Below, in pieces: positions 20,367 to 41,347 of a DNA stretch of 64,000 nucleotides; positions within the stretch are counted from its first letter, which is position 1, and every line of letters starts with the position of its first letter. The notes below the pieces were generated by a model that saw only the letters and a program-made list of their open reading frames with translations, ran no database searches and was not told where the DNA came from. The DNA comes from Leptolyngbyaceae cyanobacterium. GTDB lineage: Bacteria; Cyanobacteriota; Cyanobacteriia; Phormidesmidales; Phormidesmidaceae. Made by a program: the position numbers and the translations under genes. The DNA lies in the NCBI GenBank assembly GCA_965263355.1, contig CBDHHL010000032.1:1024001-1088000 (forward strand), written 5' to 3'.

Positions 20367-23300
20367 ATGGCTGAGTATCGATATCAAGTGGGCGGTAGCC
20401 TGCCGCCAGATGCACAAACCTACGTTAAGCGTGCGGCAGACGAGGAGTTTTACCAGGCGCTTAAGGCTGGAGAGTTTTGCTATGTGCTGAACTCTCGGCA
20501 GATGGGTAAGTCTAGCTTGCGGGTGCGGACGTCTAATCGATTACAGGCGGAGGGAGTGGCCTGTGCATCGTTGGATGTGAGTGGGTTGGGGACTACCACT
20601 ATCGAACCAGCGGAGTGGTACTTCGGCATTATGGATAGCCTGGTAGATCGGTTTGGCGTCGACCGACTGGATCCAACCTTTGACCTGGATGATTGGTGGG
20701 AGGAGAATCACAATCTGCCTCCGGTACGCCGATTTGGTAAGTTTCTGAGCCATGTGTTGCTGCGGACGGTGGACCAGCCCATGGTGATCTTTCTCGATGA
20801 AATCGACAGTGTCCTCAGTTTGGAGTTTGAGGCGGATGATTTCTTTGCCGTTATTCGAGAGTGTTTTAACAATCGGGCGGAGAATGCTGACTATAAGCGG
20901 CTGACGTTTGCACTGATTGGGGTAGCAACGCCGACAAATTTGATCCAGGCAAAAGAAAGAACGCCGTTTAATATTGGTCGAGCAATTCAGCTGACGGGGT
21001 TTAGCTTTGAGGAAGCGACACCGTTGTTGCCGGGGTTAAGAGATTGTGTGAGCGATCCGGAGGCAGTGTTGCGGGCGGTACTGCACTGGACTGGGGGACA
21101 GCCTTTTTTGGCTCAGAAGGTCTGTCAGCTAGTGATTCAGGAGGTGGAGCGTGCGGGGGAACAGCCTGCAGCGGATGAGCTAGTGGCCCAGGTGGTGCAT
21201 ACCCATATTATTGATAACTGGGAGATGCAGGATGAGCCGCCCCATTTGAAAACAATTCGGGACCGGTTGCGGGAGAATGTGCGGGCGGGGCAGTTGTTGA
21301 GCCTGTATCAGGAGATTGTTGAAGAAGGATATATCCCAGTAGACGGTAGTGCTAAGCAGATGGCGCTGCGGTTGTCGGGGTTGGTGGTGGAACGGGACAG
21401 CAAGCTGCAGGTGTATAACCCAATTTACCAGACGGTGTTTACCCAGGACTGGATTCGGGAGTCGTTGGCGAGTATTCGGCCCTATGGAGAGAAGTTGGAT
21501 GCGTGGGTGGCGGACCCTCAGGATAGTTTGTTGTTACAGGGGGAGGAACTGACGGATGCGCTGGACTGGTCGGAGACTCGTAGTTTGGGGAAGCAAGACT
21601 ATGAGTATTTGGTGGAGAGTCAGAAGCTGGGGTTGCGGGCAGAACTGGCGGCAGTGCAGGCGACGGTAGCGCAGCAGACGCAGTTGTTGAATACGAAGAA
21701 TAAGGCGATTCAGCGGGCGGATGATGAGTTGGCGGATGCAAAAGATGAGCTACGGACGGTGCGGAAGCGGACGCGACTGTCTTCGCTGTTGGGTGTCGGG
21801 TTGGTAAGTTTGGCCGTATTTGGAGCAGTTTTAACAGGGGCTCGGGCTACTGAAGCGATTGGCAAAGCACAAGATGCAGAAGAACAGTTAGTAGATACCG
21901 AGAAACAGCTAGTTGATGCAGAAAAACAGTTAACTAGCACTGCAACTCAGTTAACACGCCTAGAGACTAAGAACATTAGATTAGATAAAAGCAATCAGAA
22001 TTTAGCAAAAGAGAACCAACAATTAGAAGAAGTCAATAAACAGTCTGCAGAAGAGGTAAAAGCCGCAAAAGCAGAAACCCAAACAGCAAAGCAACAGGCC
22101 GAGACTATTCGTGGCCAGGTGGCAGGACTGAATCAGGATTTAGCCACTAAAAATAACCAGTTGGGTGATGTACAAACTCAGTTAACCGGAGCTGAGTCTG
22201 AATTGGGTTTACTACAGCAGAATGTTGGGGCATTACAACAAAGTGTCAGTCAATTAGAGCAAGAACAACTCGTTAGAAAAGACGAATTATTAGAAGCAAC
22301 TAGATTACGGAATCGTGCTGTAGTGCGTCGAAATCAAGTGCAAGAAGCCTTACGATTCTCGATTGGCACGCTGGGATTACAGCGGTTTAGAAACACTTTT
22401 TATGAGCTGGGTGGGCTGAGGAACGCAGTTGGATACTTAGAAGAGGGGCGAGAAAAAACTGAAAAGACTCAAGATAAGCGAGGAGAAAGCTATAGCCACG
22501 GTAATATAGGCGAAGTTTATAACATTCTTGGGCAGTACCCCGCTGCGTTAGACGCCCATGAAAAACATCTAACCATTGCCAGACAAATTCAAGATCGACG
22601 AGGGGAAGGACAGGCCCTGGGCAATAAGGGTGAGGTGCTTTATAACCAGGGTAAATATCCAGATGCTTTGGAGTTTCATCAACAGCATTTAACCATTGCC
22701 CGTGAGACGAAAGATCGGCTAGGAGAAAGTCAGGCACTGATGAACCTGGCACGGGTTTACTTAGCCACAGGCAATCCGAAAAAAGCACTGAACACTCACC
22801 AGGAGAGTTTAGATATTGCCATAGCAATTAAGGATCGACTGGGGGAAGGGCAAATCCTTGGCTATATGGGGGATGTGTATGACTTTCAAGGAGAGACGGA
22901 TAAGGCTCTGGAGAAATATGGTGAGGCAGTAGAACTGGCTAAAACTATTGGCGATAGCTTTGGTATGGCAGATGCTATGAAGAAGATAGCGGATATCCAA
23001 CGGCGTCGAGGTGAGCATAAAACTGCCTTGGTCACATATGGTGAGACTAAAGCTATAGCTGAACAAATTCAGGATGATAAGGGTTTAGGAGAGAGTCTAA
23101 AGGGCATAGGTCAAATCTACGCCGATCAATATAAGTATGAAGATGCACGGCAAAACTATCGTCTAGCCATAGATGAGTTTTTTGAAGTGGGAGACAAGGC
23201 CGGTGTGGGAGATATGCGGCTGACTATTGGGAGGTTATATGAGATTCAGGGGCAGTATGGTGAGGCATTGAGGGAATATCAACAGGCGTTGGATATTCAT

Positions 23301-24246
23301 CAATCAATTGATAATCGACGCGGGGAGGCAGAAAGCTTCAATAAAATTGGGAATACCTATTGGCGACAATCTCAATATTCAGAAGCTCTGGACTACTACG
23401 AACGAGCATTGGCTATTGTTCAAGAAATAGGTAATCGTTCAGGTAAAGGGACCACCCTAAACAATATTGGCATAGTCTATGACAATCAAGGGAAGTATGG
23501 TGAGGCCTTGGGGTATTACGAACAGGCCTTAGCGATTCGTCGGGAGGTGGGCGATCGCGGGCGGGCAGGCGTCACTCTCAGCAACGATTCGTCGGGAGGT
23601 GGGTCGAGCGGGCGAAGGCTCCACTCTAAACAACATGTCTACAATCAAGGGAAGTATGGTGAGGCCTTGGGGTATTACGAACAGGCCTTAGCGATTCGTC
23701 GGGAGGTGGGCGATCGCGCGGGCGAAGGCTTAGTCCACTCTAAACAACATTGGCGATCGCGCGGGCGAAGTCTATGACAATCAAGGGAAGTATGGTGAGG
23801 CCTTGGGGTATTACGAACAGGCCTTAGCGATTCGTCGGGAGGTGGGCGATCGCGCGGGCGAAGGCGTCACTCTCAGCAACATTGGTGCAGTCTATGATGA
23901 ACAAGGAGAAGATGAAACAGCGATAACTTATTACCAACAAGCTCTTTCCATCGCACAGGAACTAAATCTTCCTGCGACAACAGCGTATAGAACCTATCTA
24001 ATCGGTACCGTCTATGTCGAACTCGCTCGATATTCAGAAGCCCTAGATACCCTTCAACAGGCATTTTTCATAATGCAGGAGTTGGGTCAAGAAGATCGTA
24101 TGCAACGGGCTCAGCATTGGATGACCGATGCGCTCAATGGCATTCGGGATACTTCTGTGGGTGAGTATCAACAACAATGTCAGACGGTTAGCCAAGCTAC
24201 AGGCATTCCCCTGGCTGAGCTTTGTCCAGTGGAGGAGATACCGTAG
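20367..24246 (+). CDS. AAA_35 NTPase - TM helix - coiled coil - TPR array; frame broken in scrambled TPR copies at about 23570-23800
   Basis: [34 protein letters not shown]; hydrophobic [16 protein letters not shown]; 40-aa TPR units; ORF 23803-24246 continues the array. Confidence 0.8.
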
Positions 24247-32466: not shown

Positions 32467-32612
32467 TTGTTTTTGTAGACATTTAGTATTGTGTCAAGCT
32501 CAAGATGTTAGGTAAGACGGTGAATAGTGATTGGTGAATAGTGAGTCGTATTTCGGCATTTTACAGATACCAGCTCCCGAAATGCGACCAGAATTGGTTG
32601 AATATAATTATT

Positions 32613-34739
32613 ATGAGTCACTCTACAATCCACATTTCGATTCAAATCGGCAGCTTAGTTTTACTGTCAGGAGCACCTGGAGCTGGTAAGTCTACGGCAT
32701 GTCAGCAATTACCGTCAGACTTGGTGCTGTCTAGTGATGCGTTGCGGCAAACTTTTTTTGGGACTGCCAAACGGTGGGTGGATGGGCAAGTGGCCGACCG
32801 GCCCCTAGCTACGGATGATCGCCTGATCTTTACCACCCTGGAACATGTGGTGCGGGCAAGGCTCAAGGCTGGTTTGACGACGATTGTGGATGCCACGCTG
32901 ATCAGCGATAAAGAACGTAAACCCTTTGCCACTATTGCTGAGGAGTTAGGGGTACCGGTACAGGTGGTGATTTTTAATCCACCGGTTGAACAGGTCCAAA
33001 AGCAGAATAAGCAACGACGTTGTGTGGTCCCTGAAGATGTGGTAACTAAGTTTTGCGATCGCATCCAACTTACCTCCCACTGGCCCTTTACCCTTACCAA
33101 TGGCAAAACCACTACCCTAGCCATTGACATTCCCACCATCCCAGACACCGCCAAACTAGACGTCATCGGCGATGTTCATGGCCTGCTAGAAACCCTGCAG
33201 ACCATGCTTGACAAACTTGGCTACGACTCCGACCTTAACCATCCCAACGGACGCCAGCTTTGTTTTCTCGGCGACCTGGTTGATCGCGGTCCCCAGTCGT
33301 TAGAAGTCATGGCCCTGATTATGCAAGCGGTTAACCAGGGCCACTATTGCGTACGCGGCAACCACGACAATAATCTGGCCCGAGGACTGCACGGGGACAC
33401 CATCAAAAGCAAATCCACTCGGCAAACGTTGCACAAAGTCCTACAGCGTGACCAAGGGTACCAAACCAGGTTAAAAACCTTTATCCAAGCCTTACCATCC
33501 TTTTATCGCTACCGTAACTATGTTCTGTGCCACGGCGATATCGAATGGTTTGACCCGGTACTACAACCTGCCAATGAGCGAGTATATGGCCGCTGTCGTA
33601 TCCATGAAAACCACGACACCGACGGCATTTTTCGCCATACCAGCGACTTAACTATCGTCCGGGGACATATTCCCCTCACCTCCCCAGGAGAACGCACCTA
33701 TTCTCTGGAAACCGGTGCTGGATTTGGCGGTCCCCTAACCGCCATGCGCCTACCTGAACAGGAGATTGTTAGCGTCCCCTGCGGATTTGACTATAGCCAG
33801 TGTCCCCCTAACTTTGCTAGACAGATGGACGAGCTGGTCTCCCAAAAGCTGGTCAAACGAGTAAACGAAGGCCCACTCACCCTATATAAGTACACCTCTA
33901 AAGCCTTTTTTACCCCCTCCGCCTGGGACAATTATCCCGAGCTAAGACTAGCCCGTGGCATCGTGGTGGGTCTGCATGGGAACCCCGTCAGCCAGCCCTT
34001 TCCCCGCACGTTTAACTATCTTGAAAGAGACACAAAATTACCCCATGACACTGACGTAATCGCGGTCGAAAAACTGAATGGATTTCTAGTCAGCACGTTT
34101 TTGCATCCCTATGATGCCAATCAGGTGGTTGTTACCTGTTCTGGATCGTTTCAGGGAGACTATGTCGAGTATGCTAAATCGTTGCTGTATAAAAATAGTC
34201 TCTATGGTCGAGTATTAGCGTGGCTAAAAGACCACCCAGATACCACCCTACTGTGGGAAGCCATTCACCCTGAGGATCCCCATATTATTCAATATGGGCC
34301 AGATGACTACGGCCTGCATTTGATTGGTGCGGGCATTTTGGGTAAAGGATTTGAACGTGAGGAGGGGTTGGATGCGATCGCAACCACCTTACAAACACCC
34401 CGACCCAGCTGGTTTCCCTGTACGTTTGGAGATGCCATCTCCAAATCCCACCACGTCGAACACGAAGGCTTCATGATCCGCCTCGCCACCGACGGCACCT
34501 TTGCCCTGAAATTAAAAAGCCCCTACTACCTGCGCACCAAGTTTCTCGCCCGAATGACTCCCAAAAAGGCCAAGTTTATGTACGCTCAGCCACAGAAATT
34601 TAAACAAGAACTCGACGAAGCCTTTTGGCCCCTGGTTGATACAGTTACCAGCCAAGTTACCCAAGACACCTGGCTTACCTGGACCGACATCGAACGCCGC
34701 GATTTCATCCAAAACTGGATGAAAGAATTCTATCAATAA
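32613..34739 (+). CDS. Polynucleotide kinase - metallophosphoesterase - Rnl1-type RNA ligase fusion
   Basis: GAPGAGKST/SDALR/DAT kinase; GDVHG, GDLVDRG, GNHD phosphoesterase; EKLNG, HEGFM, LKLKS ligase motifs. Confidence 0.88.
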   Translation: MSHSTIHISIQIGSLVLLSGAPGAGKSTACQQLPSDLVLSSDALRQTFFGTAKRWVDGQVADRPLATDDRLIFTTLEHVVRARLKAGLTTIVDATLISDKERKPFATIAEELGVPVQVVIFNPPVEQVQKQNKQRRCVVPEDVVTKFCDRIQLTSHWPFTLTNGKTTTLAIDIPTIPDTAKLDVIGDVHGLLETLQTMLDKLGYDSDLNHPNGRQLCFLGDLVDRGPQSLEVMALIMQAVNQGHYCVRGNHDNNLARGLHGDTIKSKSTRQTLHKVLQRDQGYQTRLKTFIQALPSFYRYRNYVLCHGDIEWFDPVLQPANERVYGRCRIHENHDTDGIFRHTSDLTIVRGHIPLTSPGERTYSLETGAGFGGPLTAMRLPEQEIVSVPCGFDYSQCPPNFARQMDELVSQKLVKRVNEGPLTLYKYTSKAFFTPSAWDNYPELRLARGIVVGLHGNPVSQPFPRTFNYLERDTKLPHDTDVIAVEKLNGFLVSTFLHPYDANQVVVTCSGSFQGDYVEYAKSLLYKNSLYGRVLAWLKDHPDTTLLWEAIHPEDPHIIQYGPDDYGLHLIGAGILGKGFEREEGLDAIATTLQTPRPSWFPCTFGDAISKSHHVEHEGFMIRLATDGTFALKLKSPYYLRTKFLARMTPKKAKFMYAQPQKFKQELDEAFWPLVDTVTSQVTQDTWLTWTDIERRDFIQNWMKEFYQ

Positions 34740-34770: not shown

Positions 34771-34834
34771 CTCCTAAGCTCCTAAGCTCCTAAGCTCCTA
34801 AGCTCCTAAGCTCCTAAGCTCCTAAGCTCCTAAG
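34771..34834. repeat. Perfect octamer tandem repeat (CTCCTAAG)x8
   Basis: Counted directly in the sequence. Confidence 0.95.
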
Positions 34835-40165: not shown

Positions 40166-41347
40166 ATGCCATACCAACCCGTTCCCTTTAAAACCCAAAA
40201 ACCCGTCCTTTCCTGGGCGAACCACGATCTCAGCTCCAAAGAGATCCAAATGGCCAAAAACGTCGCCTCCCTACCCTTCGTTTATAAGCACGTCGCCCTT
40301 ATGCCCGACGTGCATCTAGGCAAAGGAGCCCTCGTCGGCTCCGTCGTTGCCACCGAAGACGCCCTAGTTCCTGCTGCTGTCGGCGTCGACATCGGCTGCG
40401 GCATGTGCGCTATCCAAACTCCCTATAAGAGTAAAAAACTCGACGGCAAACTCAAAAAAATCCGCAAAGAAATCGAAGCTACCATTCCCACCGGCTTTGA
40501 AAGCAACAAGAAAGTGGGTAAATCCGTCTATAACTGGCAAGGCTGGCGCAGCTTTAAAGACCTGCATAAAGGTGTGCAGCATCTAGAAAACAAAGCCCTC
40601 AGCCAAATGGGTTCCCTCGGCGGCGGCAACCACTTTATCGAAGTGTGTATCGACACCGAAGACACTGTCTGGCTGATGCTCCATTCCGGTTCCCGCAACA
40701 TCGGCAATATGTTAGCCAAAAATCACATCAGCACTGCCAAAAACCTGCAAAAGCTAGCCAACCAAAAACTGCCGGACCCCGATCTCTCCTATTTTGTCGC
40801 CGGTACCGAAGAATTTCGTAGCTATTGGAACGACCTACAATGGGCCCAAGCCTACGCCCTACAAAACCGCGAAGAAATGATGGCTCGCTTTAAGCACATC
40901 ATCGAAAAACATCTCGGTGGTGGCAAACCCTTTAAACCAGTGCTGGCCGTCAACTGCCACCACAATTACGCCGAAAAAGAACAACACTTTGGCCGCGATC
41001 TCTACGTTACCCGCAAAGGAGCCGTCCGAGCCCGCACCACCGACTATGGCATCATCCCCGGTTCCATGGGCACCAAGTCCTATATCGTCAAAGGCAAAGG
41101 CAATCACGACAGCTATTGCTCCTGCAGCCACGGGGCTGGTCGCGTCATGTCCCGTAGCAAGGCGAAGGATACCTACACCCTAGATGACCTGATCGAACAG
41201 ACAGCAGGCGTAGAATGTCGCAAGGATAGAGGCGTCATCGACGAAATCCCAGCAGCCTATAAATCTATTGACGAGGTTATGGCTAATCAGCAGGATTTGG
41301 TGGAAGTGGTGGCTACGTTAAAACAAGTCATCTGCGTCAAGGGTTAA
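40166..41347 (+). CDS. rtcB: RtcB RNA 3'-phosphate/5'-OH ligase
   Basis: MPDVH, GVDIGCG, GGNHFIE, HSGSR, HHNY, IPGSMG, SHGAGR, DEIPAAYK. Confidence 0.96.
   Translation: MPYQPVPFKTQKPVLSWANHDLSSKEIQMAKNVASLPFVYKHVALMPDVHLGKGALVGSVVATEDALVPAAVGVDIGCGMCAIQTPYKSKKLDGKLKKIRKEIEATIPTGFESNKKVGKSVYNWQGWRSFKDLHKGVQHLENKALSQMGSLGGGNHFIEVCIDTEDTVWLMLHSGSRNIGNMLAKNHISTAKNLQKLANQKLPDPDLSYFVAGTEEFRSYWNDLQWAQAYALQNREEMMARFKHIIEKHLGGGKPFKPVLAVNCHHNYAEKEQHFGRDLYVTRKGAVRARTTDYGIIPGSMGTKSYIVKGKGNHDSYCSCSHGAGRVMSRSKAKDTYTLDDLIEQTAGVECRKDRGVIDEIPAAYKSIDEVMANQQDLVEVVATLKQVICVKG

Follow-up and report, generated by a model that had tools for sequence, protein, structure and literature searches.

The fusion gene and its domains

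The window analysed here is a stretch of 64,000 nucleotides (nt) from a Leptolyngbyaceae cyanobacterium (contig CBDHHL010000032.1, positions 1,024,001 to 1,088,000). It carries an intact plus-strand open reading frame (ORF) in which a polynucleotide kinase, a calcineurin-like phosphoesterase and a predicted RNA ligase are joined in one chain. The frame ends at 34739 and encodes 708 amino acids (aa) from an ATG at 32613; its longest reading starts at a GTG at 32541 and gives 732 aa. The ATG is the better start because close relatives have an ATG at the same place when their upstream regions are aligned and because the closest homologues are mostly 703-708 aa long. Protein numbering follows the 708-aa reading. 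The closest homologues with names are ~80-83% identical (Leptolyngbya/Leptothoe-like), and the gene order is the same in Leptolyngbya sp. PCC 7375. The gene and its domains are as follows.

32613..34739, + strand: gene for the 708-aa kinase-phosphoesterase-Rnl1-type ligase fusion (ORF, Pfam, PHROG; AlphaFold model, mean predicted local distance difference test (pLDDT) 94.9)
32655..33065, + strand: predicted P-loop polynucleotide 5'-kinase domain, aa 15-151 (GAPGAGKS with K26; D42, R45, D93, R135; AAA_33, E 8e-23)
33153..33782, + strand: predicted binuclear calcineurin-like phosphoesterase, aa 181-390 (D187, H189, D221, R225, N250, H251, H307, H352, E366)
33810..34736, + strand: predicted compact Rnl1-type ATP-dependent RNA ligase, aa 400-708 (motif I K487; R448, R465, E549, E618, K633, K635, Y639)

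An initial annotation, made from the letters of the window, had placed a kinase, a phosphoesterase and a ligase in this ORF, and Pfam finds all three: AAA_33 at aa 15-151, Metallophos at aa 181-358 (E 1e-15) and RNA_lig_T4_1 at aa 447-639 (E 3e-6). The last of these scores 27.8 bits, slightly below its cut-off of 28.3. The ligase motifs that it quoted are also present, namely YKY (425-427), RGIV (448-451), EKLNG (486-490), HEGFM (617-621) and LKLKS (632-636). The 708-aa protein has no Pfam match to PNKP_ligase (PF16542) at E<=0.1, and TIGR04075, the model of bacterial Pnkp, gives the whole protein 180 bits against a cut-off of 750.

The ligase is of the Rnl1 type

The ligase domain was modelled separately (aa 400-708, pLDDT 86). 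Alone, it matches no NCBIfam model and aligns with a cyanobacterial PNKP_ligase domain at E 8.7 by blastp, whereas PHROG 562, a family labelled with the functions of T4 gp63, matches it at E 2e-35. T4 Rnl1 takes ranks 1-3 in Foldseek and rank 1 in VIA-align (Z 23.5, root-mean-square deviation 3.2, 260 aligned). The ligase of Trl1 is second-best in VIA-align (Z 20.4), and the Hen1-dependent ligases score Z 7.6 (Pnkp-C/Hen1-N, 4drf) and Z 6.1 (Rnl of Pnkp1-Rnl-Hen1, 4xrp). The proposal that the ligase motifs resemble those of T4 Rnl1 is thus borne out, and a comparison of RNA_lig_T4_1 with PNKP_ligase matched the former and left the latter unmatched. Judged by sequence and modelled fold, the ligase is of the Rnl1 type in the broad sense and lies outside the PNKP_ligase/Pnkp-Hen1 family.

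Most catalytic positions of T4 Rnl1 are kept. Identical residues stand at the positions mapped to T4 R54, F77, K99, G102, E159, E227, K240, K242 and Y246, with R54 equivalent to R448, K99 to K487, E159 to E549, E227 to E618, K240/K242 to K633/K635 and Y246 to Y639. We take K487, E549, E618 and K633/K635 to be nucleotidyltransferase motifs I, III, IV and V. Three mapped positions are not identical, K75 being R465, D101 being N489 and K119 being S510. In T4 Rnl1, Arg54 and Lys75 contact the gamma phosphate of ATP and are essential (PMC6379707).

When 1.84 billion representatives were searched with a profile, 394 matched at 1e-30, and the best 150 of these were analysed. Of the 150, 79 contain the full set of domains (647-874 aa), and a further 59 consist of the ligase only (280-345 aa, some perhaps fragments); the catalytic set is kept in both groups. 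In the three-domain proteins, E549, E618, K633 and K635 are present in 79/79 and K487 in 78/79.

The kinase and phosphoesterase resemble those of CthPnkp

By sequence and by model fold, the nearest solved structures of the kinase and the phosphoesterase are those of Clostridium thermocellum Pnkp (CthPnkp). The kinase matches the CthPnkp kinase chains at E 2e-9 by sequence, with a target-normalised template modelling score of 0.81 for the AlphaFold model. The phosphoesterase matches the CthPnkp phosphatase 4j6o at E 5e-25 with a residue alignment, and this is also its top Foldseek match. Ten residues (D42, R45, R135, D187, H189, D221, R225, N250, H251 and H352) are invariant in 73/73 aligned full-length homologues; K26 is found in 70/73, with three gaps, and H307 in 72/73.

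Eight of the nine CthPnkp active-site residues are identical in the phosphoesterase, and the ninth, Asp392, is replaced by E366, a Glu shared by 66/73 full-length homologues. The corresponding CthPnkp mutant, D392E, is an Mn2+-dependent diesterase-monoesterase with cyclic phosphodiesterase activity of 160% (PMC2190708). The CthPnkp counterpart of H189 enables removal of the 2'-phosphate, and hence sealing of CthPnkp-healed broken tRNA by T4 Rnl1; broken tRNA has been repaired in vitro by CthPnkp healing and T4 Rnl1 sealing, and the CthPnkp kinase takes both DNA and RNA (PMC1920235). Since these healing and sealing activities work together in vitro, the fusion would unite two compatible activities.

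Carriers of the fusion and Hen1

The ligase of canonical Pnkp stays blocked until Hen1 binds (PMC4411300). The initial annotation had seen no hen1 gene in the window, and a query with a cyanobacterial Hen1_L domain agrees, its best hit in the 64 kb being E 0.051 over 22 aa. As a positive control, the same query found Hen1 at 58/75 canonical-Pnkp-like loci among the matches listed. These loci come from a genome scan with the full-length alignment, which is no census and gave at least 75 canonical-Pnkp-like loci and at least 5 true relatives of the fusion.

Four of five named carrier genomes, including PCC 7375, are without Hen1_L and PNKP_ligase; the fifth (G001) has both. A sample of 150 genomes from the family of PCC 7375, the closest relative, was taken to stand in for the window's own genome. 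A strong match to the fusion ligase is found in 22 of them, Hen1_L above the cut-off in 23 and PNKP_ligase in 25; the 22 carriers contain Hen1_L in 0/22 and PNKP_ligase in 0/22. This exclusion is read only as meaning that carriers do not need Hen1. Across 401 genomes of the phylum, three have a close full-length match to the fusion and four a weaker one, and none of these seven is among the 31 genomes with Hen1_L.

Comparison with known repair systems

The Pnkp-Hen1 system (CthPnkp; TIGR04075, PF16542, Rnl4 ligase) shares with the fusion the order kinase, calcineurin-like phosphoesterase, ligase and has matching healing active sites. The fusion differs in its Rnl1-type ligase of ~310 aa, which has no detectable match to the Pnkp ligase, in its length (708 aa, compared to about 850 for the CthPnkp type), in having no hen1 nearby, in lacking predicted methylation immunity and in the Glu at the Asp392 position of the phosphoesterase. 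T4 Pnkp and Rnl1 resemble it in ligase fold, in most catalytic residues and in the predicted route through 3'-OH and 5'-phosphate ends. However, the T4 system consists of two chains and has a DxDxT phosphatase, whereas the fusion is one chain with a calcineurin-like domain; its ligase has a KxNG motif I, no Lys119 and a shorter C-domain than T4 Rnl1.

The stand-alone phage ligases of PHROG 562 (phi92, PAK_P4, Vequintavirus, phiK7A1) are ~30-36% identical to the fusion ligase over nearly the whole domain, and share the T/S at the Lys119 site and a DPHI motif. Their phosphoesterase and kinase are separate neighbouring genes. No biochemical study of the phi92/PAK_P4-type ligases was found in the literature searched. 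The phage fusions of PHROG 8238 (Twort/Sepunavirus, SPbeta-like, Lb338-1, Fusobacterium) likewise carry the three domains in this order within a single 720-778-aa ORF and are annotated only as 'RNA ligase', 'polynucleotide kinase' or 'hypothetical'. Unlike the fusion described here, they keep Lys119, and they form a separate clade in both trees described below.

Single-chain heal-and-seal enzymes are already known. Baculovirus Rnl1 is one, with its ligase at the N-terminus. The fungal and plant tRNA ligase Trl1 is another (PMC3400036), and both have an Rnl1-related ligase. Trl1 has the order ligase, kinase, 2H phosphodiesterase and leaves a 2'-phosphate (PMC3400036), whereas the order here is kinase, calcineurin-like domain, ligase. 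A survey of jumbo phages describes calcineurin-like phosphatases that work with Rnl1, and its available text names no such fusion (PMC7824862). The available parts of PMC3675462 and PMC13716836 hold nothing further on it.

Proposed mechanism and role

The fusion is probably, as the initial annotation proposed, a self-sufficient, Hen1-free heal-and-seal RNA repair enzyme, equivalent to T4 Pnkp and Rnl1 in one chain. This rests on sequence, on models and on analogy with studied homologues, from which three steps can be proposed. The P-loop domain would phosphorylate the 5'-OH end. The binuclear phosphoesterase would open the cyclic phosphate and then remove the leftover 2'-phosphate, as H189 is kept and E366 matches the Mn2+-dependent D392E form of CthPnkp. 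K487 would then be adenylylated and AMP transferred to the 5'-phosphate, and the 3'-OH would attack. Because the protein has no methyltransferase, the repaired junction would be unmethylated and could be cleaved again.

In the cyanobacterial clade, the fusion likely fills the place of Pnkp-Hen1, beside an RtcB whose different chemistry seals the same breaks. Its likely role on megaplasmids and phages is to counter defences that cut tRNA. We infer that the fusion ligates alone and that it serves in defence against ribotoxins rather than in general repair under translation stress.

Phage relatives and origin of the fusion

The closest stand-alone ligases are phage RNA ligases of ~300 aa from phi92, PAK_P4, Vequintavirus and phiK7A1/Pseudomonas syringae phages (658 records). 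They are usually flanked by separate small phosphoesterase and kinase genes. The same three-domain order is found, at ~25% identity, in Twort/Sepunavirus, SPbeta-like, Lactobacillus (Lb338-1), Alicyclobacillus and Fusobacterium phages, and 27 records of such phage fusions cover >=80% of the query. A scan of viral contigs found one stand-alone ligase and no fusion.

Two trees were built from hand-chosen subsets, one of the ligase (31 rows, 12/73 family members) and one of the N-terminal part (46 rows, 27/73). In the ligase tree, the compact phage ligases are the sister group of the fusion family (support 91/89, not starred, for the pairing and 97/98 for the family), with the fusions of Firmicute phages outside. 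Forcing both fusion groups together was weakly rejected (p 0.038 in the approximately unbiased test, p-AU). In the N-terminal tree, the fusion family, canonical Pnkp and the phage fusions form three clades. Because this tree is unrooted, an independent origin of the two fusions is left undecided. Against canonical Pnkp-like proteins the phosphoesterase reaches 98-117 bits, compared with 20-38 bits against the fusions of Firmicute phages. The simplest reading is a swap of the ligase onto a Pnkp-type healing module; fission in phage lineages is a possible alternative.

The suggestion that the gene is phage-derived stands in part. It holds for ancestry, as the closest stand-alone ligases are phage proteins, but the gene here is settled on the chromosome with conserved neighbours and ordinary GC content (0.51; 0.55 at third codon positions, GC3), inside the range of its neighbours. 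A prophage or recent island at the site is ruled out on the same grounds.

The chromosomal site, rtcB and an upstream element

In the close clade, the fusion gene occupies a fixed chromosomal site. Upstream lie genes for SRAP, an M23 peptidase, a two-component pair and an LTXXQ protein; downstream lie DUF29, rtcB, a YbjN-like gene and a large glycoside-hydrolase-like gene, the last judged by eye. No small partner gene is conserved beside the fusion in these loci. Two further features of the window belong here.

40166..41347, + strand: rtcB RNA ligase gene, 5.4 kb downstream of the fusion (Pfam RtcB, E 4e-126)
32577..32604, + strand: bipartite element CCGAAAT-N14-YTGAATA, ending 8 nt before the ATG (exact in 23/26 upstream regions, with variable spacer sequence)

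Between the fusion and rtcB, the window has a DUF29 gene, a flippase, an adenylosuccinate-lyase-like gene and a DUF2442 gene. A downstream rtcB on the same strand is found in 19/27 loci with >=77% ligase identity, the window included; these 27 loci are related to one another and may include duplicates. The fusion stop and the rtcB start overlap in locus L179 and are offset by 16 nt in L172. From this arrangement, rtcB was likely an ancestral operon partner that inserted genes have split off in the window. In the 150 genomes of the PCC 7375 family, rtcB is present in 40. In Anabaena, rtcB is repressed by TrcR and the repression is relieved under translation stress (PMC10272220); by analogy, this control may bear on the pairing of the fusion with rtcB, as a lead only.

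The bipartite element is likely a promoter or operator, judging from its conservation. The fusion site is its only exact genome-wide match in PCC 7375 and in one close relative. No regulon was found, as one-mismatch counts were similar to those of a reversed control. Scanning for sigma-70 sites gave none upstream of the fusion gene, and comparison by eye with the sites given in the available text of PMC10272220 showed no clear match to a TrcR box there.

Directly after the fusion stop, at 34771-34834, the window has eight perfect tandem copies of the 8-mer CTCCTAAG. A long AAA/TPR gene at 20367-24246 is seemingly broken near 23777, and TPR coding continues in another frame. At another locus (L186), the homologue is followed, several kb downstream, by a long CRISPR-like array with a ~35-nt repeat unit and spacers.

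Distant relatives on plasmids and near tRNA arrays

Four Variovorax megaplasmids, a group known for tRNA arrays (PMC7313664), carry distant members of the family. Arrays of tRNA genes lie beside the fusion in L004, L083 and L112. On a Variovorax plasmid of 839 kb (L083), the fusion stands among 23 tRNA genes with release-factor-like and HNH genes. On a Novimethylophilus contig of 225 kb (L004), which by its gene content looks like a megaplasmid or a piece of a large phage, it stands among 10 tRNA genes with release-factor-like, HNH, PTH2 and YqeY genes. Neighbours of the translation-rescue type in L004 and L106 are PTH2, release-factor-like, TROVE, tRNA synthetase and NADAR genes, and other distant members lie on AT-rich contigs with PTH2, TROVE, NADAR or NAD-salvage genes.

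Other arrangements of related ligases were seen as well. L115 (503-1993) encodes a 497-aa protein with an N-terminal P-loop and a related ligase, followed by a separate gene for a 199-aa metallophosphoesterase-like protein (2076-2672); Pfam gives no match at 1e-5 here, and the same two-gene toolkit occurs in L116-L133 and L135. A stand-alone Rnl1-like ligase of 360 aa with a KLDG motif (L159-L165) is found in 7/150 genomes of the PCC 7375 family, of which 0/7 carry the fusion and 3/7 have Pnkp-Hen1. On a Rhizobium plasmid (L197, 2908-5940), an Rnl1-like 'RNA ligase' adjoins rtcR, which suggests a neighbourhood of the Rtc operon type that includes a 5'-3' ligase. A 676-aa cyanobacterial protein (L231, 7519-9549) has an N-terminal Rnl1-like ligase.

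Alternative readings

Several points weigh against the reading of the fusion as a self-sufficient, Hen1-free repair enzyme. In the ligase, besides the Pfam score just under its cut-off, the cyanobacterial clade has changed T4 Lys75 to Arg (R465) and has Gly at 574, where Lys and Arg, respectively, are found in 48/48 non-cyanobacterial members. Lys119 of T4 Rnl1 is essential, and S510 stands at its site. Fused and stand-alone relatives alike have T, S or Q there (72/79 and 59/59 among the best 150 of 394 matches), so this loss is a trait of the subclass and not decay of the gene in the window; judging from conservation, K426, H557, K643 and R647 are candidates for what takes its place. The ligase C-domain, a short, helical segment of ~70 aa (aa about 637-708), is shorter than that of T4, and the VIA-align structural alignment stops at model residue 279/309 and T4 residue 291. 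As the T4 Rnl1 C-domain determines tRNA specificity (PMC6379707), a tRNA substrate is only putative here. One homologue (P0044, 706 aa, 54% identity) has intact kinase and phosphoesterase motifs and the equivalents of K487Q, E549T and K633Q in its ligase; from its sequence, it is possibly a healing-only or RNA-binding derivative.

Genomic context adds further points of this kind. The absence of overlap between the fusion and Hen1_L in the 150 genomes (0 against 3.4 expected) has an uncorrected p of 0.019 and is confounded by kinship and by many incomplete genomes. G001, which lies outside this sample, carries both systems and so speaks against strict exclusion; its Hen1 adjoins its own canonical Pnkp as an operon. 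The rtcB gene is missing at 8/27 close loci, four of which have <1.4 kb of downstream sequence. It is also missing near 29 more distant loci and near L229 and L230, so the pairing is local to the close cyanobacterial clade. At 22/25 scanned loci, a tRNA gene is lacking. In the literature searched, mostly open-access main texts, no study of the fusion and no activity data for any member were found; Burroughs and Aravind 2016 may list the architecture.

The alternative that survives best keeps the same three chemistries but makes them a broad housekeeping activity without any particular tie to tRNA-cutting toxins: under translation or damage stress, it would seal whatever healed single-stranded RNA (fragments of rRNA or mRNA, circles) or DNA ends there are. 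It would suit the short, non-T4 C-domain, the fixed chromosomal site amid non-defence genes, the control of Anabaena rtcB by TrcR (PMC10272220) and the acceptance of DNA as well as RNA by the CthPnkp kinase (PMC1920235). However, the spread is patchy, with a close full-length match in 3/401 phylum genomes, and some distant members are on DNA that resembles plasmids or phages, in the company of tRNA arrays and genes for ribosome rescue. We regard this alternative as unlikely.

Less likely again is a ligase that is weak or partner-dependent in the cyanobacterial clade, in a protein that mainly heals ends for another ligase to seal. The missing Lys119, the K75R and G574 changes, the ligase-dead homologue P0044 and the frequent adjacency of rtcB would fit. 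Yet within the clade, ligase domains share 77-85% identity with that of the window and keep motifs I, III, IV and V, the loss of Lys119 is common to all 59 stand-alone relatives, and no small partner gene is conserved alongside. Nor would RtcB serve as the sealing enzyme, since it takes 3'-phosphate or cyclic-phosphate ends and healed 3'-OH/5'-phosphate ends are not its substrates (PMC7824862).

The phosphoesterase scores against canonical Pnkp-like proteins would also fit a divergent canonical Pnkp that depends for its activation on a Hen1 gene at some other place in the genome, but this reading is largely refuted and most improbable, given a ligase that is not PNKP_ligase by profile, sequence or fold, the lack of Hen1_L in all 22 carriers and the position of the G001 Hen1 gene next to a canonical Pnkp of its own.

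Significance

The chemistry of the fusion is known and its architecture is already present in annotated phage genomes; the family, the ligase subclass and the pairing with rtcB look unstudied. A wider view, which we hold tentatively and at slightly less than even confidence, is that the fusion represents a widespread, unstudied family of bacterial enzymes that repair RNA self-sufficiently, with ~80 clusters at 50% identity. In this family, a compact phage ligase would have replaced the Hen1-locked one on a Pnkp-type healing module, with an origin apart from that of the Firmicute-phage fusion. It would act as a counter-defence gene on megaplasmids with tRNA arrays, and in one marine cyanobacterial clade it would have taken over from Pnkp-Hen1 and joined rtcB in an operon with two ligases. 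The ligase of the family would be a structurally uncharacterised Rnl1 subclass without Lys119, with its own C-domain and perhaps its own substrate range.

If the heal-and-seal reading is true, the fusion is a natural counterpart of the pairing of CthPnkp healing with T4 Rnl1 sealing that has so far been made by mixing proteins in vitro, and a testable function would fall to many genes of phages and megaplasmids whose current label is 'AAA ATPase' or 'RNA ligase'. The fusion might also be a one-enzyme reagent for joining RNA ends that bear a cyclic phosphate and a 5'-OH. It allows one to ask why bacteria retain a Hen1-locked ligase despite a free alternative, and its pairing with rtcB raises the question of why two ligation chemistries would be kept in one operon.

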